DNA of 10,810 nt, taken from IMG/VR virus record IMGVR_UViG_2917886563_000002; one strand, 5' to 3'. Source of the stretch: a virus. Taxonomy: Duplodnaviria > Heunggongvirae > Uroviricota > Caudoviricetes. Positions 1 through 10,810 of the stretch are shown piece by piece. The stretch's first letter is position 1, and every line of letters begins with the position of its first letter. The position numbers and the translations under genes were made by a program. A model generated the notes under the pieces. The model saw only the letters and a program-made list of their open reading frames with translations, was not told the origin of the DNA and searched no databases.

Positions 1-470
<470 letters not shown>

Positions 471-507
471 AATGTCACCTGTTTTGACTATGAGGTGATG
501 ATATCAC

Positions 508-543
508 CTCTATTCAGGTGGCCAAATTTACTATGCCACTACA
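508..543 (-). repeat. Terminal inverted repeat of the IS911-like element (outer end at 543)
   Basis: Lies upstream of the OrfA start; outer end TG (minus) / CA (plus) at 542-543; internal GAGGTGAT/ATCACCTC palindrome at 492-510. Confidence 0.7.
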
Positions 544-599
544 AATAAAACTATATTAGATTATTAATTAGATCATAATAATAATATTCTTTATATCTA

Positions 600-790
600 T
601 ATATATGATCTTTTGCCTTCCGGCGTTAGCTTCACTCCCTGGCAAGCAGCCTTACTCCGCTACCTTTGGGCTACGTTGGCTGGCCCGTTCCGCTCACACC
701 GAAAGCAAAGCGTTACTTTCTTCGTGTAACTATCGTGGCGGTAACGCCCACGAAGAAATACTATTGCGCTGTGCGCAGTAAGAGTAATCA
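600..790. other. GC-richer non-coding segment with nested inverted repeats, unassigned (candidate structured RNA or remnant of a disrupted locus)
   Basis: No ORF of useful length on either strand; local G+C clearly higher than the surrounding AT-rich DNA; contains the 10-bp arm inverted repeat at 713-762. Confidence 0.3.
713..762. repeat. Perfect 10-bp inverted repeat TTTCTTCGTG ... CACGAAGAAA with 30-nt spacer
   Basis: Read directly: tttcttcgtg at 713-722 and cacgaagaaa at 753-762. Confidence 0.7.
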
Positions 791-893
791 CCTAACCAAT
801 CATACTGATTGCTTACGTGTTAACTCTCTCTAACTCTTAATTACCCTCCTACATTTAATAACTCTCGTTATTCTCTGTAGTCGTGTAATTGTT

Positions 894-925
894 TTCGGTG
901 GAAAAGCCAGAGGCGACACCGAAAG
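894..925. repeat. 8-bp inverted repeat TTTCGGTG ... CACCGAAA, related in sequence to the 713-762 hairpin arms
   Basis: tttcggtg at 894-901 and caccgaaa at 918-925; the decamer ACACCGAAAG occurs at 696-705 and again at 916-925. Confidence 0.6.
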
Positions 926-934
926 AGAATTCTG

Positions 935-1000
935 ATCTTATTAATCTTATCTATCTTAGTTAATCTTCTTACTTATCTTACTTACTTTATCTACTTTATT
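935..1000 (+). repeat. Pyrimidine-rich tract with periodic ATCTTA hexamers (iteron-like array)
   Basis: ATCTTA at 935, 944, 953 and 975, with degenerate copies (ATCTTC, CTTACT, ATCTAC) between and after; spacing of 9 bp for the first three. Confidence 0.5.
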
Positions 1001-1507
1001 ATTAATAATAGCTTTATAAGCTCTGTGTAGCTCTCTGACGCAAGAAACAGCATTCAGGAAGGGAATCACCTTAGAAAAGGTGTTCTTTGCGTCATAATGT
1101 GTTTTATGAAGGATTCAGAGGTGTTTCATAACAGGAATGTATAGAGGATACTTTAATTAATTAAAAATAAGGGGTCTAAATGCTTCTCTAACAGCATTAA
1201 GCAGGGTAGGGAATGGAAACGCATTGTCTACATATAATAAGCTCACTACAGAGCTTTACAGAGCGTTTTTATAAAGTGACTCTCTATCTTATATCTACCA
1301 TTACCTTTTCATATACCTAACAAATACAAAATAAGCCCCTTAAATAAGCCTCTGGCGAGCTAAACAGCCATTACATAAGGGAATGTATTGCTTTTATCAA
1401 AATCTCGTTATAACGCGTTTTAGACAATAATGAAGAATGGCACTACACAGAAGAGCACGAGTTGCTCGTAAGTGCATGAAAAAGATCGATTTTTTTCGGA
1501 AGGGGTA

Positions 1508-1536
1508 TTGACAAACGTCTCTTTCTGTGCAATAAT
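1508..1536 (+). promoter_or_regulatory. Sigma70-type promoter candidate (TTGACA, 17-bp spacer, TGcAATAAT extended -10)
   Basis: ttgaca at 1508-1513; aataat at 1531-1536 preceded by tg at 1528-1529; AT-rich upstream; imperfect palindrome GCACGAGttgCTCGTaaGTGC at 1455-1475. Confidence 0.55.
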
Positions 1537-1590
1537 AGGAATTAGAGGGGACAGGAATAGATTCTTATCCTCTAAATAATTAAACCAATG

Positions 1591-1634
1591 CACCGCACTT
1601 TGAAGCCCAAGGCTTGCAAGGTGTTTTTTCTTTT
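1591..1634 (+). terminator. GC-rich stem-loop followed by T6CT4 run in the 5' leader of the first cargo gene (intrinsic terminator or attenuator candidate)
   Basis: CACCGCA...TGCaaGGTG pairing at 1591-1623 with inner AAGCC/GGCTT hairpin, then ttttttctttt at 1624-1634; lies between the 1508-1536 promoter and the SD at 1648-1654. Confidence 0.45.
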
Positions 1635-1661
1635 AACCAAATAGAATAAGGAGGCTAATTA

Positions 1662-1838
1662 ATGAAATATTTTACTCCACAGGATGTAGTAGAAGCCTGG
1701 AAACGTGGTGAGATCAACCGCTTTAAAGTAAGGATGTATAGAAACACCGCTCGCCGTTGTGGTTATCCAGAGCGTGAAAAATGTTTTGACGATGCACTGA
1801 AAATTATTGATGAACTGCGTAAAGCTGAGAAAGAATAA
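1662..1838 (+). CDS. Small basic hypothetical protein (58 aa), absent from the supplied ORF track
   Basis: ATG at 1662 preceded by AAGGAGG (1648-1654); hand translation MKYFTPQDVVEAWKRGEINRFKVRMYRNTARRCGYPEREKCFDDALKIIDELRKAEKE, stop TAA at 1836-1838. Confidence 0.6.
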   Translation: MKYFTPQDVVEAWKRGEINRFKVRMYRNTARRCGYPEREKCFDDALKIIDELRKAEKE

Positions 1839-1860
1839 TAGACAAGAGAAGGAGAAAACT

Positions 1861-2028
1861 ATGAGCGAAACTAAGAAACCAATTCCGCGCACTTACCTAC
1901 ACGTTGACCCTGAAATCTTCAAGGTTTTATTTGCTGAAGCCAAGAAAAGGCAAATTATGGTCAGTGATTTGATGTTAGAAATCATTACTGAAGCAGCAGA
2001 GAACATCAAACAAAAAAAGGGTAAGTGA
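1861..2028 (+). CDS. Small DNA-binding protein, ribbon-helix-helix-like (55 aa)
   Basis: ATG at 1861 with GAAGGAGA SD 5 nt upstream (the track's 1807 start lacks an SD). MSETKKPIPRTYLHVDPEIFKVLFAEAKKRQIMVSDLMLEIITEAAENIKQKKGK shows a polar/hydrophobic alternating strand (RTYLHV) followed by two helices, the RHH pattern. Confidence 0.6.
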   Translation: MSETKKPIPRTYLHVDPEIFKVLFAEAKKRQIMVSDLMLEIITEAAENIKQKKGK

Positions 2029-2079
2029 TCCTCATTCACTTTAGTAGCGCATTAAGCGTGATTTATAAGGAGATTTTTA

Positions 2080-2769
2080 ATGATTAATCAACTAACTTTT
2101 ACAAAACACTATGACACGTTTGATAATGTATCAAAGATTTATTCTGATAAATTCCCTCAAGGAAAAGATTTAGATCTATTACATATTGTGCTTTATTTTC
2201 GATTCCTTAGTTATCAGGAAAACAACCTTAATTGTTATGAAAGTCACGAAACATTAGCTAAGATTTTTAAGTCTTCAGCGTCAACAATTAAACGTAAGAT
2301 AAACGATCTTAAAGAGATGGGATTATTAGAAACATCCCCACATCCTGATCCGTATATTTCATCTTTGATTTACAATGCTCTCCCTCTCACAGATGCACAT
2401 ATTACTCCCCCAGGAGAATCATCACTCTCTGATCTTTCTGAGGCAGAAGAAGCACAGGAACAACCTAAAGGCCATAAACAGCCTTCTTTTGATGCTCTTG
2501 ATGATTGGGATACGCCTTTACCCTGGGAGATGGAAGAAACACCTGTTTCATCAAGTGAAAAGGTAGCTAATGATAATGAGGAGGATGTGTTAAAGAATTT
2601 TGCCTCTCTTATCATCCAGGAGAAACACACAAGAACAGGAGGAGCATCATTTATTGAGTTTGCAAATTCACTAGCTTGTAGATACGGGCTAAAACGACCA
2701 AATGGTATTGAGGCATATTTTGCTAAGAAACATCCCAAAGTATATGAAGACTTTGATATTCCATTTTAA
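2080..2769 (+). CDS. Hypothetical protein with N-terminal winged-HTH-like domain, acidic Pro-rich linker and C-terminal domain (229 aa)
   Basis: SD AAGGAG 7 nt upstream; N-terminus ...LHIVLYFRFLSYQENNLNCYESHETLAKIFKSSASTIKRKINDLKEMGLLE has the look of a wHTH of phage/plasmid replication or regulatory proteins. Confidence 0.8.
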   Translation: MINQLTFTKHYDTFDNVSKIYSDKFPQGKDLDLLHIVLYFRFLSYQENNLNCYESHETLAKIFKSSASTIKRKINDLKEMGLLETSPHPDPYISSLIYNALPLTDAHITPPGESSLSDLSEAEEAQEQPKGHKQPSFDALDDWDTPLPWEMEETPVSSSEKVANDNEEDVLKNFASLIIQEKHTRTGGASFIEFANSLACRYGLKRPNGIEAYFAKKHPKVYEDFDIPF

Positions 2770-2780
2770 TAAGGAGGGTT

Positions 2781-3059
2781 ATGATTCAATATTTAGTAAA
2801 AAATCAAGTAGACAGAATTCAGTGTAATGACACAGGAAAACGCATCTACGAGACACTTGCTTACCTCTATAAAGGAAAGCCAACACCGCTAAAATATAGC
2901 GATGTGTTACATCGAGCAGGTTGCTCTGAAGCTGGTTTAAAATTCTGGCTGAAACAGCTATCAGATTTCGGTGTTATAGAGATTAAAGAATTATCTTTCT
3001 CTACATTCAATCTCAAAAGATTAGATAAAGAAATAGACTTCATCTATTCCACTCTCTAA
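2781..3059 (+). CDS. Small winged-HTH-like protein (92 aa), paralogous in pattern to the N-domain of the 2080-2769 product
   Basis: SD AAGGAGGG immediately upstream; ...RIYETLAYLYKGKPTPLKYSDVLHRAGCSEAGLKFWLKQLSDFGVIEI. Confidence 0.7.
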   Translation: MIQYLVKNQVDRIQCNDTGKRIYETLAYLYKGKPTPLKYSDVLHRAGCSEAGLKFWLKQLSDFGVIEIKELSFSTFNLKRLDKEIDFIYSTL

Positions 3060-3100
3060 AATCTCTCTATGTAATTAAAATATAAAAGGAAAACATTATT

Positions 3101-3247
3101 ATGATAGTAGCTATGTATTGGTTATTGTTCTTTCTCACGTTAGAAGCATATTTCGGGGTGTTTTCCTTTAAAAGAAAAGGAAAAGTAAATGGCAAAAAGA
3201 AAAAAACAACGTTGTTAAGAAGATCGGTGATTCAGCTTCTCTTCTAA
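3101..3247 (+). CDS. Small predicted membrane peptide (48 aa): hydrophobic N-terminus, Lys/Arg-rich C-terminus; possibly the 5' part of a longer frameshifted gene
   Basis: ATG at 3101 with AAGGA about 10 nt upstream; hand translation MIVAMYWLLFFLTLEAYFGVFSFKRKGKVNGKKKKTTLLRRSVIQLLF; not in the ORF track. Confidence 0.4.
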   Translation: MIVAMYWLLFFLTLEAYFGVFSFKRKGKVNGKKKKTTLLRRSVIQLLF

Positions 3248-3360
3248 GTAAACCTAAATCTATTCTAAGACGCAAAGACTTTAAAGAGCTAGTTACGCTC
3301 ACCAAGCAAAATAGCGCCCCTGGCGAATGGAAAACAGAGATCATAGAACATTCTCCCTCT

Positions 3361-3600
3361 GTGCCTTGTGGAGATGAATTTAACGCCTTACAAGAAATCT
3401 TATCTTCAACACCTGGCGTATTCTGGAAACCCAGGAAAAGAAAAGAGTATATCGTTGATAGCTCTGATTTACGCAAATACCAGATTTTAGGATTTGAAGA
3501 TTATAATCACTACGTTGGTTATCTCGCTACCAATGGCCTAAATAATTTAGTTCCAGAATTCCAGATTTTAGATAATGCTGATCACTATGGAGACTTTTAA
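3361..3600 (+). CDS. Hypothetical protein fragment; this frame is open from 3172 with no ATG and is probably the downstream part of a gene starting at 3101
   Basis: Track ORF starts at GTG 3361 with no SD; the same frame is stop-free back to 3172 and overlaps the 3101-3247 ORF across an A-run at 3194-3206. Confidence 0.35.
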   Translation: MPCGDEFNALQEILSSTPGVFWKPRKRKEYIVDSSDLRKYQILGFEDYNHYVGYLATNGLNNLVPEFQILDNADHYGDF

Positions 3601-3601
3601 T

Positions 3602-3940
3602 ATGAACAAAAACACGTATGACACAATTTACTCACTAATTAATTATTATGAGGATGATTACCTCCTGCCTTTAAACCGCGCTGAACTTGAAGCATACAAA
3701 GAAAACACGCCAGCGGCACTAAATGAGGCGTTTAAACACTGGGATTTAGCTGTGAATGCCTTTGAGCACCTCTCTAAGCGTGTAGAGATGCTCTGTAAGC
3801 GCGAAAACGCATATCTGACAGCCGATCAGATATGGGAGCTATCAAACTGGATAGAAGATATTGAATCTGATGTTCGCTATGTAGGGGATGGCCTTGTTGA
3901 ACTCGCACAACGCTTAGGCGCTGCTATCACAGAAGAATAA
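3602..3940 (+). CDS. Acidic hypothetical protein (112 aa from ATG 3602; the track's 3575 start is less likely)
   Basis: GGAG at 3590-3593 sits 8 nt before ATG 3602; product MNKNTYDTIYSLINYYEDDYLLPLNRAELEAYKENTPAALNEAFKHWDLAVNAFEHLSK... is strongly net acidic by hand count (about 22 D/E against 10 K/R). Confidence 0.65.
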   Translation: MNKNTYDTIYSLINYYEDDYLLPLNRAELEAYKENTPAALNEAFKHWDLAVNAFEHLSKRVEMLCKRENAYLTADQIWELSNWIEDIESDVRYVGDGLVELAQRLGAAITEE

Positions 3941-3969
3941 AAAAAGCAACAAAAAAGTTGTAAAATATC

Positions 3970-3998
3970 TTGACATTTCATATATTGTATGTTAATAT
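3970..3998 (+). promoter_or_regulatory. Sigma70-type promoter candidate (TTGACA, 17-bp spacer, TGtTAATAT)
   Basis: ttgaca at 3970-3975; taatat at 3993-3998 preceded by tg at 3990-3991. Confidence 0.5.
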
Positions 3999-4132
3999 AA
4001 TTATATAGGGGTGATTATTTTTCCTTTATTGGTTCGATATTAAAAATTCTTCTTGTCGTTAAAGGGGAGTAAAATCTCCGCTCCCCGCTTCTCCTCCTTA
4101 AGTAATACTGTGTCATACCTCTTTTTTCCTTT

Positions 4133-4162
4133 GTTATGCATACATCTTGGAGTGTGCATAAC
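4133..4162. repeat. Inverted repeat GTTATGCA ... TGCATAAC (operator-like), with a third GTTATGCA copy at 4211-4218
   Basis: gttatgca at 4133-4140, tgcataac at 4155-4162, gttatgca at 4211-4218; adjacent palindrome CAACTTaaAAGTTG at 4217-4230. Confidence 0.6.
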
Positions 4163-4176
4163 ATAGGGTAATTACA

Positions 4177-4207
4177 AAGGCGGCTTTAAATGCTGCCTTT
4201 TATTTTG
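4177..4207 (+). terminator. Stem-loop followed by T-rich run (intrinsic terminator or attenuator candidate)
   Basis: AAGGCGGC (4177-4184) pairs with GCTGCCTT (4192-4199) with one G-T wobble, loop tttaaat, then ttattttg. Confidence 0.45.
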
Positions 4208-4268
4208 CCCGTTATGCAACTTAAAAGTTGTATTTCTTACTTTAAACAAGGTAACAAGGTTTATATAA

Positions 4269-4481
4269 ATGTTGTTCTTAAATGATAAAGAGCAAATCAT
4301 CAAGTATAAAGATGAAATGCTGCGAATTACTCCACAAATTACCGAAATGGTAGCTAAATACGCTGGGTGTTCTGTCGAGGAAGTAGAAAGATGTGTTGAA
4401 AAATATTTTTCTCCTTCTTCTCCGTCTACACCTTCCCTTAATGAATTAATCAAATTAAAAGCTAAGGAGATTACTAAATGA
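4269..4481 (+). CDS. Small acidic hypothetical protein (70 aa)
   Basis: Track ORF; weak SD (AAGG about 10 nt upstream); its stop overlaps the next start (ATGA at 4478-4481), suggesting translational coupling. Confidence 0.55.
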   Translation: MLFLNDKEQIIKYKDEMLRITPQITEMVAKYAGCSVEEVERCVEKYFSPSSPSTPSLNELIKLKAKEITK

Positions 4482-4840
4482 TTATTGATTTAGACACTCT
4501 TTTTCCAGTTCGAAAGACTTTCACAGATATTGTAAGTTACTGTACTGATCCGTTTGCTTCTGTAGAAAGCAAGGTTTTTGCTTCTCTTCCTGCTGATGTT
4601 GAATGCGGAGACTTGATCACCAGCACGGGCGCTAAATATGAATCAGGAGATGATATCTATGTTGTTATGAGTGAATTTGTAACGGCAGGAGAAAACAAGC
4701 CTGTAGATGTGCTACGTAGCAATGCTGGCCTTGTGTGCATTAAAGCTGATGCGCTGAATGCTGTAAGTGAAGCAGCAAAAACAGCATTAATTAAAAAAGG
4801 CTTCCAGCTTGAAGGCTTTAACACGGTTTTCACTTCTTAA
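4478..4840 (+). CDS. Hypothetical protein (120 aa)
   Basis: SD AAGGAGA at 4463-4469; overlapping stop-start with the upstream gene; no family recognised. Confidence 0.7.
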   Translation: MIIDLDTLFPVRKTFTDIVSYCTDPFASVESKVFASLPADVECGDLITSTGAKYESGDDIYVVMSEFVTAGENKPVDVLRSNAGLVCIKADALNAVSEAAKTALIKKGFQLEGFNTVFTS

Positions 4841-4858
4841 TAAAAGGAATAATAATAA

Positions 4859-5887
4859 ATGATTCTAGGTAATGATTACGTTGATTTAGCTCCGCTTTTC
4901 CAGACACACAGCACGCGTAACTTTCTGCTCTCTACCCTCGACTTCACTGATCCGGTGGGCGTTAGTTCTCATAAAGTAGCTGTTTCCCAGCTTGTCGAAA
5001 GCAACGAATCTCTCTTTAACAAAGAGACAAGCCGTTTTAGTTCTGAACACAATGTTACTAAGCGAGAACAAGGTAAAGAATGGCTGATTGAAATCCCGTA
5101 TTTTCTTCGTGAGGATGTGATCCGTCCTTCTGATGTTCAAGGCAAGCGTAAGCCTGGCACTGATTTTCAGGAAACACTTACTGATATCTATGCTGACTAT
5201 GTTGCTAAACACCACGTAGCGTATCAGCGTACAAAAGAGAGCGTGTTGGCGGCTTCTTTGTTCTCTGGCAAAACTTACACGCCTAAAACTGACGATGTGT
5301 TAATTGAGTGGGGCAAGCTGTTTAACGTATCAGCTATGAAAGCCACTGTTAACGCCTCCAGCACTGACACCACGAAGATTTTTAAAGAATTTGATCAGAT
5401 TGCTACTGACATTATCGAAAAAGCACAAAGCCAGGCGGCTGCTGTAGAGCGTATTGTTGTTTTCTGTAAGCCGGAAGCCTTCTCTGCAATTCGATTCTCT
5501 GCTGGTATGGCAAACGCATTCCAGTATGTAAGCCCACTGGAAGAGGGGAACGTTGTGTATCAGCGTCGTGACCTGCTACCAGGAGTGACAGCGTTCACTA
5601 TTCCAGGAACTAACATTGATGTTGTTAAACTGGTAGATCCGCTACACCTGGCACATATGACCGCAGACGCTGTAGCTGTGCCTAAATTCGCTAAAGGCTC
5701 TAACGTATATCAGAACATTTACGGGGCTGCTTCCAGCACTTTTGAACTGATTAATGCCGCTCCTGCTGAGGTGTATAGCTATAGCTATGAATCTTCTCGT
5801 GGTGATGCTGTTAACGTTGTTACAGAGAATAGCCAGATGGTGGTAAACCACGGCGTTGGCTTCTCCGTTCAAATCACTGTTAAATAA
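4859..5887 (+). CDS. Hypothetical protein (342 aa); candidate structural (capsid-like) protein, unverified
   Basis: SD AAGGA upstream; long ORF with protein-like composition and no signal peptide; followed by the strongest terminator in the window; paired with a 120-aa upstream gene. Confidence 0.8.
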   Translation: MILGNDYVDLAPLFQTHSTRNFLLSTLDFTDPVGVSSHKVAVSQLVESNESLFNKETSRFSSEHNVTKREQGKEWLIEIPYFLREDVIRPSDVQGKRKPGTDFQETLTDIYADYVAKHHVAYQRTKESVLAASLFSGKTYTPKTDDVLIEWGKLFNVSAMKATVNASSTDTTKIFKEFDQIATDIIEKAQSQAAAVERIVVFCKPEAFSAIRFSAGMANAFQYVSPLEEGNVVYQRRDLLPGVTAFTIPGTNIDVVKLVDPLHLAHMTADAVAVPKFAKGSNVYQNIYGAASSTFELINAAPAEVYSYSYESSRGDAVNVVTENSQMVVNHGVGFSVQITVK

Positions 5888-5905
5888 TATTTTAACGTGT
5901 AATAG

Positions 5906-5945
5906 AGGCGTGGCGTGTATTCACGCTTCGCCTTTTTTTATTTAT
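5906..5945 (+). terminator. Rho-independent terminator
   Basis: AGGCGTGGCGTG (5906-5917), loop tatt, CACGCTTCGCCT (5922-5933), then ttttttatttatttttt. Confidence 0.75.
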
Positions 5946-5973
5946 TTTTTAAGTTTTGAGAGGTGATTAAAAT

Positions 5974-6177
5974 ATGGAAGTGATTTTGAAATCAAAAAAT
6001 GGTGTACACGTACATTTAGATGCTAATGATTCTAGAGGCTTGTTAAATCTGAAATATCTATGTTCTCTTTTAGATGTTCCCTATGAAGGCGTAAAAGCCC
6101 GTATGTTCAGATTAAACGAGAGTATTGATCAGGCTCTACACCATTTCTTAAGCAAAGAAGGTGGTAAAAATGATTAA
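5974..6177 (+). CDS. Small hypothetical protein (67 aa)
   Basis: SD GAGGTGA 7 nt upstream of ATG 5974; stop 6 nt before the SD of the next gene. Confidence 0.6.
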   Translation: MEVILKSKNGVHVHLDANDSRGLLNLKYLCSLLDVPYEGVKARMFRLNESIDQALHHFLSKEGGKND

Positions 6178-6191
6178 TAAGGGGATTTTAA

Positions 6192-8024
6192 ATGTTAGAA
6201 ATTAACACTTCCAAGATTAAAAATACAGTAACATTTACTGTAGATAAAGACAGCTTGAAAAAAGCGAAAGACTCTATTACAGGCTTAAAGGAATTCGCAG
6301 AGAACATCAAGCCAGCTAAATTAAGATTTGATAGTGTCACTAAAGGCTATAAGAAAGCACAAAGCGAAGTAGACAAGATTGCTCAACAGAAAGCTAAAAC
6401 AGAAAAGCAAAATCAAAGAGCACAAGCTGCCGCAGCAAGAGCACAGGCAAGGCAACAGCAACAAATAGCAGCACGTAAGGAGAAGGCAAACTTAAAACTG
6501 TTAGACGTTGGATCAAGCATTAGTGCATTGCACCGCCTCTCTGTAGCGGAACAATACAAAGCTATTGCACAGGCTAGAGAGATAGCGAAACAATATGAGC
6601 AAGGGGCTATCTCGCTTGCACGTATGAATAGCCAGATGAAACGCTTACAACAGCAACAACGTAAGATTAATGGCAATAGAAAAACTCAATTAGCCCCCGT
6701 TAAGGGAGGAGGATCAGGGAATGCCGCCACTATGGGCGCTCTGTTATTTGGAGGCGCTACGGCTGCTGCTGGCGTGATGGCTGTTAGTAAAACCTCTGAA
6801 TTTATGGCTAACAGCTTTGCGAATGCTGAAACACAAGGCGAGCTAATTCAACGTGCAAGGCTTGGCGGTGTAGACGTTAACCAGATGTATAATATTACAG
6901 AATGGGCCTATAGAAACGGGATCGACTCTATGATGGGTGATCAAGGGGCTAGGAAATACCTGGATCAGATGAAAGATGTTAGGGAACGTGCCGCAAAATC
7001 CTATAGTGAAGCTGAATTAGTGAAAGATAAGAAAACAGGAAAATCTGAATGGAAAGGCGGTGATAACGCTATTAATGAACTTCTAAACATCGGTGTTATT
7101 AACAAAAGCGACCTTAAAAAATTTGCTGATAATCCAGCCGGATTAATTTCTAAGGCTGTTAATGGAATGATGAAAAAAGGGTTTTCAGACTCCCAAATTG
7201 GACAACGTTTAGAAGACCTGGGCGATGATTTGATGCTTACGTCAAAATATTGGCAACGTTCCGTTAAAGATGTACAAGAAAGCATTAACCAGCAAAAAGC
7301 CGCCGGACAATGGCTAACAGAAACACAGCAAGACTCTATTGTTAAATTCAGAGAACTAAACAGACAGCTTTCACAGCTTTCTGATGCAAGACAAGTAGCA
7401 TTCGTAGACGGCTTTATGAAATCTCTTGATCCAAAAGTAACGGAAGAGTTTATGAAAAACCTTTCTAATCTCACTCCGTATTTTACGAAGCTGGGAGAAG
7501 CTACAGGAAGTCTCTTTGAAGCCATTATGAAGATTGTAAACTGGTTTAATCGTAATGATGATAAGACAGATGCTATTCAGAAAAATATGGGTGATGCACC
7601 GCCACTATCTAACGATGGAATGAAACAGAATCTTTCTAACCTCGTTCCTGACCAATATAAAGGCGCTGGCACTGCAACAACTACACCTGATAATAGTCGT
7701 TCTCTCTTTAACACGATTAAGGGATTGCTTTTTGATGATAATTCTTCTGTGTCAGATGTAAAAATGTCAGTCAATGAAGCACCGATAACCAATCTCAAAC
7801 AGGGTGCTTTAAATAATCTTGCAATGACAACTCCGGCTTATAATTTATCTCCTGTGTTTAATCTGAATCCAACGTTTGAAGTGGTAACAGAGGTTCCGCT
7901 TACTATTAATTCTGACACGTCCAGATTAAGTGATTATGTGGATTTTACAGCGAGAGCAAGTCGGGATATCTTCTTGAAATCATTAACATTAACCAGCTTA
8001 TCAGGACAATCTAACGGCGGGTAA
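6192..8024 (+). CDS. Large hypothetical protein (610 aa): Gln/Ala-rich coiled-coil-like N-region, Gly/Ala hydrophobic segment, Asn/Ser/Thr-rich C-terminus; tape-measure-like or scaffold-like, unverified
   Basis: SD AAGGGGA upstream; segments ...KTEKQNQRAQAAAARAQARQQQQIAARKEKANLK... and ...GGGSGNAATMGALLFGGATAAAGVMAVS...; no signal peptide. Confidence 0.8.
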   Translation: MLEINTSKIKNTVTFTVDKDSLKKAKDSITGLKEFAENIKPAKLRFDSVTKGYKKAQSEVDKIAQQKAKTEKQNQRAQAAAARAQARQQQQIAARKEKANLKLLDVGSSISALHRLSVAEQYKAIAQAREIAKQYEQGAISLARMNSQMKRLQQQQRKINGNRKTQLAPVKGGGSGNAATMGALLFGGATAAAGVMAVSKTSEFMANSFANAETQGELIQRARLGGVDVNQMYNITEWAYRNGIDSMMGDQGARKYLDQMKDVRERAAKSYSEAELVKDKKTGKSEWKGGDNAINELLNIGVINKSDLKKFADNPAGLISKAVNGMMKKGFSDSQIGQRLEDLGDDLMLTSKYWQRSVKDVQESINQQKAAGQWLTETQQDSIVKFRELNRQLSQLSDARQVAFVDGFMKSLDPKVTEEFMKNLSNLTPYFTKLGEATGSLFEAIMKIVNWFNRNDDKTDAIQKNMGDAPPLSNDGMKQNLSNLVPDQYKGAGTATTTPDNSRSLFNTIKGLLFDDNSSVSDVKMSVNEAPITNLKQGALNNLAMTTPAYNLSPVFNLNPTFEVVTEVPLTINSDTSRLSDYVDFTARASRDIFLKSLTLTSLSGQSNGG

Positions 8025-8057
8025 TTCCCGCCATAACATTACAAGGAAATTATTATT

Positions 8058-8768
8058 ATGGCGACGGCGGGAATTTTAACCATACGTGCAGCAAATACTC
8101 CAGAACAACACGTTCAGGCTGTTTACAAAGCAGAACAAGATATAAACTCTACAAAAAACGAAAATAGCAAAGCTAATAAAACAAAAGGAGAAAATGGATT
8201 TGCTATTGTCACCAGTGGGCTGGCATCTTCTGTAAGTGACGTTTATGAAAATTATATGGCGTTATCCTTTGACAGTGTTGACGATGTGAACGTGAGACGT
8301 TCGGCAGATGTCACAAGCTATCCTGTAGAAAATGGAGCTAATGTATCGGATCACGTTCAAGTTAAGAATAATAAGTTTGCTCTTAAAGGGCGTATCTCTG
8401 AAACACCGATTAAAAGCGATCCTGGCTTGTTAAAGAGTGCAGGGGTGAACGGGAACAGAAGATCATTAGCTATCGACTACCTGAATCAGATTATGGACAG
8501 TAGACAGCCTTTTCTTCTTGTTACAGAAAATAAAACTTTTGAGAACGTTGTTTTAACAGGCATCGAATACACAGAAGAGGCAAGCGAATCTCTGGTATTT
8601 GATTTGGAATTTGAGCAAATCAGATTAGTTTCTTATGGCACTGTAAACACTGTAGCTATCAAAACACAGCCATCTAAGAACATCGGGGCTAATATGAAAA
8701 AACGTGTTAACACTGAAAAAACAAGTGAAGGTGAAGACACTATTACTCCTGCCTTTAAGCAGGAATAG
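8058..8768 (+). CDS. Hypothetical protein (236 aa); possible virion or tail-associated protein, unverified
   Basis: SD AAGGA 10 nt upstream; immediately follows the 610-aa gene; a stem-loop follows the stop. Confidence 0.75.
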   Translation: MATAGILTIRAANTPEQHVQAVYKAEQDINSTKNENSKANKTKGENGFAIVTSGLASSVSDVYENYMALSFDSVDDVNVRRSADVTSYPVENGANVSDHVQVKNNKFALKGRISETPIKSDPGLLKSAGVNGNRRSLAIDYLNQIMDSRQPFLLVTENKTFENVVLTGIEYTEEASESLVFDLEFEQIRLVSYGTVNTVAIKTQPSKNIGANMKKRVNTEKTSEGEDTITPAFKQE

Positions 8769-8809
8769 CCGTAAACGCCTCTAAAACGCTCTGTAACGAT
8801 GTAATTATA

Positions 8810-8842
8810 AAAGAGGCTACCAATCTATGTTGAAGCCTCTTT
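8810..8842. terminator. Stem-loop between convergent genes (bidirectional terminator candidate)
   Basis: AAAGAGGCT (8810-8818) and AGCCTCTTT (8834-8842), 15-nt loop; T/A-rich flanks on both strands; lies between the 8058-8768 gene and the minus-strand recombinase. Confidence 0.4.
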
Positions 8843-8849
8843 ATTGCGT

Positions 8850-9848
8850 CTATGGCGTTGTTTTACGCCTTAAATTTGATTTTTTATTGATTGATAAGCC
8901 TTTCTCTATTTCAGGGTAGCGTAGAAGCTCAATATATTTTTTAAGCTCTACTGGAGAAGCTGCATTCTTGCTATATGTGCGGAATGTCTCTGTATTGCCG
9001 CGTGTATGGCCCAGGAGAAGGGCGATCCTGTCTTCTGGAATTTGATTTCGATCAAGAAGCTGTGCTACTCCGTGTCTCAGAGAATGAAACACCTTCCTTT
9101 CTGTTCCCTTTTCCCCTAAAGCCTTTCGTTTAGCTCTTGTAAATCTCTGCGTGTGCCACGTGGAACGTTTACCATCAGCACGCTCTGTAATGCTGGCGTG
9201 ATAGAACAAAAAGCCATTGTGAGGCTTTTCACGAAGAGATAACACCAACGGAGTGATAAGGCTATGTACAGGCACAAGACGTGCCGCAGCTTTCGTTTTT
9301 CCCTGTGTGATTTCAAAACACAGCACACCTTCGATCTCTTTCACATCGTCTATTGTGAGACTTGCTATCTCATTGATCCGCATACCTGTATATAAACCGA
9401 TAAGACACAAAGCCGTCATTTCTTTGTTTTCTGCTGAATTACCGGAAAATACTTGCAACACCTGCAATAGCTCTTTGTTAGAAAATGCCTCATAGCTCTC
9501 TCTACTTTGTGCCACATCAAGCCTATGCCCTCGCCAGGGGGAGAGCGCCCTTTCTGGCGCATCGTGGTAACGTGATGAAGCTAACTCCCATAGCTGGGCC
9601 ATTGGGCTGATATAATTTGCAATTGATTGTTGTGAAAGGGTTTTTTGCATGCGTTCTATCCAGCCTGTAACAGTGGTGCGGCTCACATCTTGCAATGCAA
9701 TATCAGGCTTTTTACGGTAGGAGAGAAACATCTCTACCGCTTTTCTTGCCTTAGCTAAAGTGGCTGGCTTCTTCTTCGTGCTGTTAATTGTCAGGTAGAT
9801 TTCAAGAATTTTAAGCAATGACGGACACGAAGACGCTGTATCTTGCAT
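8850..9848 (-). CDS. Tyrosine site-specific recombinase (integrase), 332 aa
   Basis: Catalytic-domain signature in order: Arg in ...LYTGMRINEIASL..., H-x-x-R in ...FHSLRHGVAQLL..., ...LLGHTRG..., and Tyr in ...TFRTYSK...; N-terminal region ...LEIYLTINSTKKKPATLAKARKAVEMFLSY... resembles a core-binding domain. Confidence 0.9.
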   Translation of the reverse strand: MQDTASSCPSLLKILEIYLTINSTKKKPATLAKARKAVEMFLSYRKKPDIALQDVSRTTVTGWIERMQKTLSQQSIANYISPMAQLWELASSRYHDAPERALSPWRGHRLDVAQSRESYEAFSNKELLQVLQVFSGNSAENKEMTALCLIGLYTGMRINEIASLTIDDVKEIEGVLCFEITQGKTKAAARLVPVHSLITPLVLSLREKPHNGFLFYHASITERADGKRSTWHTQRFTRAKRKALGEKGTERKVFHSLRHGVAQLLDRNQIPEDRIALLLGHTRGNTETFRTYSKNAASPVELKKYIELLRYPEIEKGLSINKKSNLRRKTTP

Positions 9849-9925
9849 TCTGGTAGCTGTTTTGGCGTATTTAGCCTTACTTCGTAACAGTTCCAGCGTG
9901 TTCTCTATTGTGCTGTTTACAGGAG

Positions 9926-10810
9926 TGATCTTGACCCGCTATCTCCGGACCGCTTTTGTATCTTAAGTTAACGATGCCCGCTGCCGCCGGTATTCCCTCG
10001 GAGAGTAATATCCCAGCGCGCTGTGCGGGTGGTTTTCATTGTAATGCGTGAACGCTGCTGCAAGGTTTTGCAGGGCTGTTCTCACATCCGGTTTTGGCAT
10101 GAACGCGATATAGTCTTCTTTCATCGTCTTCACGAACCGTTCGGCCATGCCATTACTCTGCGGACTGCTCACCGCTGTTGTACAGGGTTCAAGATTCAGC
10201 TCTCTGGCGAACCTCCGCGTTTCATGCGCAGTATACGCTGAACCGTTATCCGTCAACCACTGCACTGGTGTGTCCGGCAACCTGTCGCCGAAGCGCTTTT
10301 CCACCGACCTCAGCATCACATCCTGTACGGTCGAACTGTCGTAGCCTCCCGTGCTCGCTGCCCAGTCTATGGCCTCTCTGTCGCAGCAGTCCAGCGCGAA
10401 CGTCACCCGCAGTTTTTCACCGTTGTCGCAGCCGAACTCGAAGCCGTCTGAACACCAGCGCATATTGCTTTCTGCCACCGCGATTTTTCCCTTGTGTTCA
10501 CGCTTCGGTCGCTCTGGTTTGTCATGCAACAACAACAGGTTATGCTCGCTCATTATCCTGTAAAGTCGTTTGGCGTTCACCGGTGGCTCTCCCTCAGTGC
10601 GACGTTGCTTGCGCAGGATGCCCCACACGCGTCGATAACCATAACTCGGCATATCGCTGATGATATCGAGGATATCCGTCAGTATTTCAGCGTCTGCTTC
10701 GTCATTACGCCGGTTACAGCGCCTGTCCTGCCAGTCGGCAGAACGGTTAACTCGCAGTGACAGCTGCGCACGCGACACGCCCATGGTGCGGCTGACCAGG
10801 GCTATTCCCC
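9926..10810 (-). mobile_element. IS3-family insertion sequence, IS2-like, partial (OrfA side runs off the right window edge)
   Basis: Minus-strand end reads ...GGCGGCAGCGGGCATCGTTAACTTAAGATACAAAAGCGGTCCGGAGATAGCGGGTCAAGATCA, the same pattern as the IS2 right end as recalled; G+C rises at 9926; encodes an IS2 OrfB-like transposase. Confidence 0.88.
9963..10784 (-). CDS. IS3-family (IS2 group) transposase OrfB, DDE catalytic domain
   Basis: ...[13 protein letters not shown]...RWCSDGFEF...[13 protein letters not shown]...[11 protein letters not shown]...[11 protein letters not shown]...[12 protein letters not shown]; D, D and E motif residues present; frame continues upstream past 10784 toward the window edge. 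Confidence 0.92.

Follow-up and report, generated by a model that had tools for sequence, protein, structure and literature searches.

Integrases of the lambda and HPI (P4-type) kind are heterobivalent and combine a small N-terminal domain of three strands plus a helix with a SAM-like core-binding domain and a catalytic domain. Lambda-type integrases require the arm-binding domain for intasome assembly in both integration and excision. The insertion sequence (IS) IS2 duplicates 5 bp of its target. Its right terminal repeat (IRR) is 41 bp long, and its right end supplies only the -35 half of Pjunc, for which a -10 is needed exactly 17 bp away (PMC3299598). At thrW, PAI-APECO1-thrW/VAT-PAI (Parreira & Gyles 2003) is listed at 295124-315041 (PMC7545054). 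The integrase discussed here has the same three-domain layout in its intact form and is integrated at the 3′ end of a tRNA gene (thrW), with a 20-bp repeat at attR. In the copy that we analyzed, an ISEcl1-like IS has very probably inserted within codon 68 of the gene and left an N-terminally truncated pseudogene, of which Met94 is not the true start.

The window, i.e., the whole stretch of 10,810 nucleotides that was analyzed, is the entire draft contig PDHX01000033.1 of assembly GCA_004745245.1 from Escherichia sp. E4736, an unclassified cryptic-clade Escherichia. Both contig ends run into insertion sequences. The features that matter for the argument are as follows.

1-543, minus strand: 5′ end of a second, different IS3-family IS, with its tip near 543 and an HTH_Tnp_1 domain; it interrupts the island too
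159-470, minus strand: orfA of this second IS (Pfam HTH_Tnp_1)
544-8768, plus strand: body of the thrW-type genomic island to which the integrase belongs
544-1660, island: AT-rich, ORF-poor stretch
2080-2769, island: rep-initiator-like gene
4859-5887, island: Phage_cap_E capsid gene
6192-8024, island: tape-measure-like gene (610 aa)
8058-8768, island: Dit-like gene
8850-9925, minus strand: integrase remnant, codons 69-425 plus 2 nt of codon 68, from a DUF6538-type tyrosine recombinase; stop codon at 8850-8852
9846-9848, minus strand: apparent start codon, by alignment the internal Met94 of the intact 425-aa protein, with no SD upstream
9911-9925, no strand: predicted target-site duplication TGCTGTTTACAGGAG, on the assumption of a 15-bp duplication such as two related copies appear to have
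9926-10810, minus strand: 3′ 885 bp of the ISEcl1-like IS (IS3 family, IS2 group); the window ends inside it
9926-9966, minus strand: IRR, tip 5′-TG on the plus strand, its 41-bp extent set by analogy with IS2
9939-9941, minus strand: first in-frame stop (TAG) upstream of the remnant, inside the IRR
9963-10810, minus strand: partial orfB with HTH_21, rve and rve_3 domains (Pfam)

The open reading frame listed on the minus strand at 8850-9848 encodes 332 aa. Its frame is open upstream as far as the TAG at 9941-9939, inside the IS terminal repeat, so that the open frame across the junction comprises just 4 IS-derived codons before this stop. The IS tip TG lies at 9926-9927, 77 nt from the ATG at 9846-9848, and the 30 nt preceding the ATG contain no 4-mer of AGGAGGT. 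On all of these points the sequence-only reading was accurate: its placement of the tip (at 9926), the ATG and the TAG is correct, and it had noted both the lack of a clear SD and the frame that stays open through the junction into the terminal repeat. It had, however, taken the ATG for the start codon of the integrase, with the IS some 78 bp upstream of the gene. The spacing from the ATG is real, but the IS sits inside the gene and the ATG is an internal codon of a 425-aa reading frame. Aligning the remnant with intact homologous integrases, as that reading had proposed, makes the truncation directly visible: with zero internal stops and zero frameshifts, the remnant aligns to residues 69-425 of the intact E. 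coli protein at 98% aa identity. Translated, the 77 nt from the IS to the ATG give residues 69-93 of the intact protein at ~100% identity, and the four codons upstream of Pro69 are IS sequence (R-V-K-I-T in the window vs. E-S-V-A in intact genes). No ATG, GTG or TTG lies between the IS-borne stop and Met94.

The DNA gives the same answer. Position 9925 is the last one with homology to intact genes, and from 9926 on the sequence is that of the IS, beginning with its tip TGATCTTGACCC; the window thus reads TTTACAGGAG followed by TGATCTTGACCC, where intact genes read TTTACAGGAG followed by CGACACTCTCCCG. A search with the region 8700-9928 gave 413 matching records, from 412 of the 5,426 complete E. 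coli genomes, each match breaking off at the IS tip. The break point is exactly this tip, after the first base of codon 68 of the intact gene. Because homology stops at the IS tip inside codon 68, the IS lies within the gene and the apparent start codon is Met94. OrfB and the integrase remnant share one frame, and an OrfB-Int fusion was considered as a candidate product; it is ruled out because two stops (9965-9963 and 9941-9939) separate them.

Intact orthologs are annotated at 1278 nt (425 aa) in the three complete E. coli genomes examined, and the SD of their true start is GGGGAG or GGAGA. Full-length homologs at 55-66% identity are mostly 404-426 aa long. The 17 that were aligned (57-67% identity, 406-426 aa; from Escherichia, Klebsiella, Citrobacter, Enterobacter, Raoultella and Scandinavium) all have a conserved N-terminal DUF6538 domain, start at or upstream of the 425-aa Met and share the N-terminal block Y..D..G.Y.VRI.IP.YM..F.GK..FV.S..T.D.R.AR..RD. 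Homologs of the same length as the window ORF that begin at the same Met, which would have spoken for a complete gene, were not what we found: the close homologs checked are 425 aa long and, like the distant ones, carry DUF6538. In Pfam terms the intact protein consists of DUF6538 (15-60), Phage_int_SAM_5 (104-183) and Phage_integrase (218-388); the window ORF keeps PF13102 and PF00589 (E 1.9e-17), and PF20172 is absent. As a tyrosine recombinase (PF00589 with R...K...HxxR...H...Y) the window ORF is thus recognizable, whereas the N-terminal DUF6538 is missing, the IS cutting at codon 68. R269, K296, H367, R370, H393 and Y404 (P0055 numbering), which we take to be the catalytic residues by analogy with lambda Int, are invariant in 19 homologs and also in the window row. 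Judged by its sequence, the window gene is a truncated derivative of the DUF6538-type integrases and not an intact member.

The remnant differs from intact copies by 6-15 synonymous and 3-5 non-synonymous codon changes. Since these differences are mostly synonymous and there are no stops or frameshifts, the insertion may be recent, or the remnant may still be constrained. No protein identical to the 332-aa ORF is on record in a collection of 15 billion proteins, and no gene was called at the remnant position on the source contig. Searched against phage genomes, the integrase gave only distant matches (~25-28% identity), and it therefore does not come from a known phage. A protein search with residues 1-69 recovered other disrupted or partial alleles of the same integrase in E. 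coli (P0002-P0009), of which P0002-P0008 are independently disrupted copies.

The remnant has lost codons 1-67 with the genuine SD and start codon, and beyond these ~145 bp of upstream DNA as well as attR, which in intact islands is a 20-bp copy of the 3′ end of the thrW tRNA-Thr gene, ~145 bp upstream of the int start. The sequence-only reading had suspected that the IS displaced the native upstream region and possibly clipped the 5′ end of the gene. Both are borne out, the second to a greater extent than suggested, with 67 codons (202 nt) gone from this side of the IS. The N-terminal 105 aa are predicted (pLDDT 77) to fold into three beta-strands, a short helix and a long one, the latter ending at residue 67, exactly the IS cut point. 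The best matches to the model of the lost domain are 3jtz, 1z1b and 2wcc, i.e., the arm-type DNA-binding domains of HPI and lambda integrases, so DUF6538 is predicted to have an arm-type DNA-binding fold. This N-domain family is uncharacterized: no mention of DUF6538 was found in the literature searched. The model is the first fold-level hint we found that Pfam DUF6538 may be an arm-type DNA-binding domain, and the likeness is one of fold only.

The window ends 885 bp into the interrupting IS and one IS junction is visible. IS3-family copies in E. coli and on Klebsiella and Enterobacter plasmids match the stretch 9926-10810 at 94-96% identity, and ~95%-identical copies of the IS are found on more than 1,400 Klebsiella plasmids; full-length related copies measure about 1337 bp. 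The description of this end as IS2-like, made from the sequence alone, is fair in that OrfB shows 64% aa identity to IS2 InsD and the terminal repeats resemble those of IS2, but ISEcl1-like is closer: the same 90% protein cluster as OrfB contains a member named "IS3-like element ISEcl1 family transposase". The window IS and its relatives share with IS2 the HTH_21, rve and rve_3 domains of OrfB, the TG tip and, in related copies, the IRL motif GCCCCCTGAA...CCAGACA; at the nucleotide level the identity to IS2 is only ~70%. By hand count, 17 of the first 25 positions of the IRR tip TGATCTTGACCCGCTATCTCCGGAC match the IS2 IRR TGGATTTGCCCCTATATTTCCAGAC, and the IRL of related copies reads TGATGTAGCCCCCTGAAACACCAGACA vs. 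TAGACTGGCCCCCTGAATCTCCAGACA in IS2. The ends thus have the IS2-like form 5′-TG...CA-3′. As expected for the IS2 group of the IS3 family, the transposase is of the DDE (rve) type, and its production from orfA plus orfB by a programmed -1 frameshift is supported by a full-length related copy annotated "programmed frameshift", the orfA region of the window IS lying outside the window. The ISEcl1-like relatives appear to differ from IS2 in their target duplications: 15-bp direct repeats border the related copies in L007 and L017, and a third copy, which is degenerate, has none; the window holds one IS end. A simple insertion would be predicted to give a far junction made up of GGGGGCTACATCA (IRL tip), TGCTGTTTACAGGAG (15-bp duplication) and CGACACTCTCCCGTAAGCAATGG (rest of int).

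A consensus scan of the minus strand from 8700 to 10300 found no sigma-70-like sites save one downstream of the gene, and no terminator-like site between the transposase orfB and the remnant. A hybrid outward promoter with the geometry of IS2 Pjunc was checked by hand and rejected, its -35 (CGGAGA) matching at 3/6 positions and its -10 (TCCTGT, in int DNA) at 2/6. The suggestion that an outward-reading IS end now drives the integrase is therefore unsupported, with no sigma-70-like site across the junction and no SD or start to follow it.

We propose that an ISEcl1-like IS (IS3 family, IS2 group) transposed into codon 68 of the gene for the island's tyrosine integrase. Codons 69-425, with the SAM-like core-binding and catalytic domains, would have stayed next to the island, while the DUF6538 domain, RBS, start codon, promoter region and attR would now lie at least 1.3 kb off beyond the IS, or be deleted. 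The ATG at 9846-9848 would lack an SD because it is merely the first Met codon (Met94) after a chance stop in the IS terminal repeat. Without promoter, SD and proper start, the remnant is most likely a silent pseudogene, a loss of expression that we infer from these missing signals. Any product made from Met94 would still be missing the arm-binding domain for the intasome. With neither expression signals nor an arm-binding domain, the island can most likely no longer move by itself, although a related integrase might act on it in trans, and the copy in Escherichia sp. E4736 is probably immobile. For annotation, the 332-aa ORF is best labeled a pseudogene truncated at its N-terminus and not an integrase with an odd start.

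Read at face value, the ORF list offers another account, in which ATG 9848, the first start after the stop, begins a complete integrase that still has SAM-like and catalytic domains, and the IS lies 78 bp upstream in non-coding DNA, where it replaced the promoter and possibly brought an outward one. This account has next to no chance of being right. The supposed non-coding spacer codes for residues of the intact protein, the homologs are longer and have DUF6538, there is neither an SD nor a promoter-like site, and at the level of sequence the alignments already refute it. A second account accepts the truncation and holds that the remnant is still expressed, by transposase read-through or from a cryptic promoter, as an arm-less Int (Met94-425) with some activity left, which might bind and cleave core sites, resolve Holliday junctions or interfere, as a dominant negative, with the related intact integrase of the strain's second island. 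The arrangement of the locus gives it some footing. The transposase gene has the same orientation and no terminator-like site precedes the remnant, so read-through transcripts could reach it; the ORF is undisrupted, its differences are mostly synonymous and its conserved catalytic-region residues are identical to those of intact copies. The Met94-425 product would match the two-domain layout of Xer or Cre, lambda Int fragments without the N-domain retain core binding and cleavage activity, and a paralog in the same strain, P0062, has a C-terminal half of nearly the same sequence. Against it stand the missing SD, the lack of an alternative start, the absence of the product from the record and the indigenous IS2 promoter PIRL, which is described as weak (PMC3299598). 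On balance we consider an active arm-less protein improbable.

The remaining alternative concerns how the junction arose. It could be the scar of an IS-mediated deletion or inversion, or of recombination between IS copies, with the int 5′ end, promoter and attR absent or elsewhere. The window, which ends inside the IS, is compatible with a simple insertion as well as with an IS-mediated deletion, and a break exactly at the IS tip fits either. The rearrangement gains some weight from the contig running out inside IS copies at both ends, and from the protein search with residues 1-69, in which no short N-terminal relative ends at this junction. An uncalled 69-aa fragment is weak evidence, however, as pseudogene pieces are seldom called, and in E. 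coli related copies of the IS are found as simple insertions between direct repeats. We regard a rearrangement as unlikely, though well short of negligible. It differs from the insertion that we favor only in the fate of the 5′ fragment, and the truncation stands under both.

The rest of the window is island DNA. The 9.4 kb between the two ISs is ~95% identical to an island that at least 209 complete E. coli genomes carry; homology to the intact islands begins at 538-544, where the second IS ends. The latter is 99.8% identical to E. coli loci annotated "IS3 family transposase"; a composite transposon is ruled out, since the two flanking ISs are different elements. Small genes are also present in the island body (544-8768), and Rfam gave no matches anywhere in the window. 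GC content is 39% for the island and 37% for phage muut, and reaches 55-56% in the IS portion of the window (10001-10800). In a second NCBI assembly of the strain and in Logan contigs of SRR8835208 and SRR6053163, runs not established as the same strain, the island genes were found only on contigs of 2-10 kb, some of them breaking off ahead of the integrase, compared with 10.8 kb for the window.

Several observations connect the island indirectly to large phages. Five of its 12 proteins have homologs in muut, a 146-kb virulent phage (Justusliebigvirus, Stephanstirmvirinae): one of 55 aa matches at 100% identity (99.2% nt over 242 bp), the Dit-like one at 62% and the tape-measure-like one at 28-55%, and the capsid and rep-like proteins match weakly. 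The tape-measure-like proteins of Escherichia and Klebsiella islands match almost only the tape measures of ~145-155 kb myophages. In Klebsiella pneumoniae, and in E. coli islands of a second type, the same gene order lies beside integrases with no more than 57-65% identity; strain E4736 itself carries one such example, with the intact integrase P0062. A scan of IMG/VR with the capsid returned 12 loci on contigs of 19-76 kb, which are not island-sized; we read their numeric ids as isolate-genome prophage calls, which are no evidence of encapsidation.

Across the family the gene order is small genes, rep-like, small genes, capsid, a ~65-aa gene, a ~615-aa tape-measure-like gene, an optional Dit-like gene and the DUF6538 integrase. 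Like a phage satellite, the island is a small integrated element with an integrase, a replication gene (rep-initiator-like) and an incomplete virion/packaging set: capsid, tape-measure-like and Dit-like genes are present, and searches of Pfam and PHROGs gave no matches in the island to terminase, portal, sheath or tube. It does not fit the definition of a cfPICI, in that the Phage_cap_E capsid alone is recognizable, with no portal, protease or terminase in the same collections. The literature searched yielded no paper describing satellites of these large phages. Tentatively, and with rather less than even confidence, we suggest that the ~10-12 kb islands of Escherichia and Klebsiella make up a family that has apparently not been described before, and that they are satellites or parasites preying on virulent Stephanstirmvirinae myophages (~145-155 kb, phi92/phAPEC8 types), or a decoy defense that poisons their tail assembly; the island could alternatively be a conserved remnant. 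If the islands are satellites, satellite biology in E. coli and Klebsiella would extend to a new helper group. The integrase serves as a marker for this conserved group of islands with ties to large virulent coliphages; one copy has probably been grounded by the IS.

Among described islands, VAT-PAI/PAI-APECO1-thrW is the point of reference. The E. coli island type, the one for which the site was determined, sits at thrW, and in APEC O1 an intact version of ~12 kb, from thrW to the 20-bp attR repeat, lies between thrW and the vat gene and falls within the PAI-APECO1-thrW interval. The window copy differs in coming from Escherichia sp. E4736, in being ~95% identical to that version and in being cut by two IS elements. 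Its int junction differs in turn from other IS-disrupted integrase pseudogenes: none of the 5,426 complete E. coli genomes has it, and no match to the junction 39-mer turned up among the GTDB species representatives. As a kind of event, an IS-disrupted integrase is already known, and neither the mechanism nor the junction is new. The IS-disrupted integrase pseudogenes of Escherichia and Shigella cryptic prophages and islands likewise have a transposable element in the int ORF and an N-terminally truncated remnant beside the cargo.

The integrase remnant lies in an island that is a member of a conserved family shared by Escherichia and Klebsiella, in a comparison with the intact island of APEC O1 (L006) and with six loci carrying related islands (L019-L024). 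The features of the contig considered here are as follows.

Window 544-9925: the island owning the integrase, compared with L006 1644-13889 and L019-L024
Window 1-543: second IS3-family IS at the left contig end, its tip near 543, with orfA at 159-470 on the - strand
Window 544-1660 (L006 1644-4000 in APEC O1): AT-rich stretch with almost no ORFs, on the attL-proximal side of the island
Window 1861-2028, + strand: 55-aa gene, within the stretch 1849-2090 that matches phage muut

Gene order in the family runs from small genes through a rep-like gene and further small genes to a Phage_cap_E capsid gene, followed by a ~65-aa gene, a ~615-aa tape-measure-like gene, an optional Dit-like gene and the DUF6538 integrase. 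The IS at the left contig end is unrelated to the ISEcl1-like IS at the other end, and it too cuts the island, ~2.4 kb from thrW as laid out in the intact APEC O1 copy. The contig is simply a product of short-read assembly, unique DNA bounded by two IS copies.

Disruption of the integrase of this family seems to be a repeated event. Further alleles of the window integrase in various E. coli assemblies (P0002-P0008) are independently disrupted near the N-terminus, with foreign sequence joined after residue 39 or 48 or with the frame shifted after residue 30. In some cases the start is called 19 codons farther upstream (MRHNQFSHYKRSDTLAG-), giving a 444-aa form. IS sequence near a related integrase was also found in the related island, in a single copy from Klebsiella pneumoniae.

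L019 8736-9667: IS3-family element fragments

Downstream of these fragments, at a distance of ~330 bp, comes an intact DUF6538 integrase; this is the layout that the sequence-only reading had pictured for the window. Around ISEcl1-like copies elsewhere in E. coli, direct repeats were located at two loci.

L007 1490-1504 and 2842-2856: perfect 15-bp direct repeats flanking the ISEcl1-like IS
L017 886-900 and 2237-2251: perfect 15-bp direct repeats flanking the ISEcl1-like IS

The repeats, GAGCTAGCTGCGGAT and GGGAAACGGCAATTT, surround two independent complete copies and are absent around a third, degenerate one (L018). Direct repeats are usually quoted as 3-5 bp for the IS3 family and 5 bp for IS2, and those of the ISEcl1-like copies are far longer.

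Strain E4736 also has on record an integrase paralog, P0062 (423 aa, 65% identity overall), which carries DUF6538 and appears full-length. In the genomes examined (L022-L024), integrases of this type are housed by a second island, which belongs to this family too. The C-terminal catalytic half of P0062 and the window remnant are almost identical, while the N-terminal half of P0062 has diverged. This pattern points to mosaic integrases, to possible action in trans or gene conversion, and to a repeat which may break short-read assemblies.

The AT-rich stretch near attL (GC 0.34-0.44) amounts to ~3.5 kb in the uninterrupted island of APEC O1 and carries small palindromes and short direct repeats (22-nt units, 938-1020). 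Rfam gave no match within 544-1660. Possible roles for the stretch are those of an origin, a packaging site or a region of non-coding RNA.

The 55-aa gene has its counterpart in the virulent phage muut, where muut_153 shows 100% amino acid and 99.2% nucleotide identity to it, and muut_154, immediately downstream in the phage, has weak similarity to the 229-aa rep-like protein of the island; taken together, these similarities imply a recent exchange of DNA between island and phage. GC content is 39% in the island and 37% in the phage. Pfam and PHROGs revealed no gene for a terminase, portal, sheath or tube in the island. The island family is possibly an undescribed satellite or decoy-defence family, and the only phages whose structural proteins its own resemble are the Stephanstirmvirinae, myophages of ~145-155 kb of the phi92 and phAPEC8 types.
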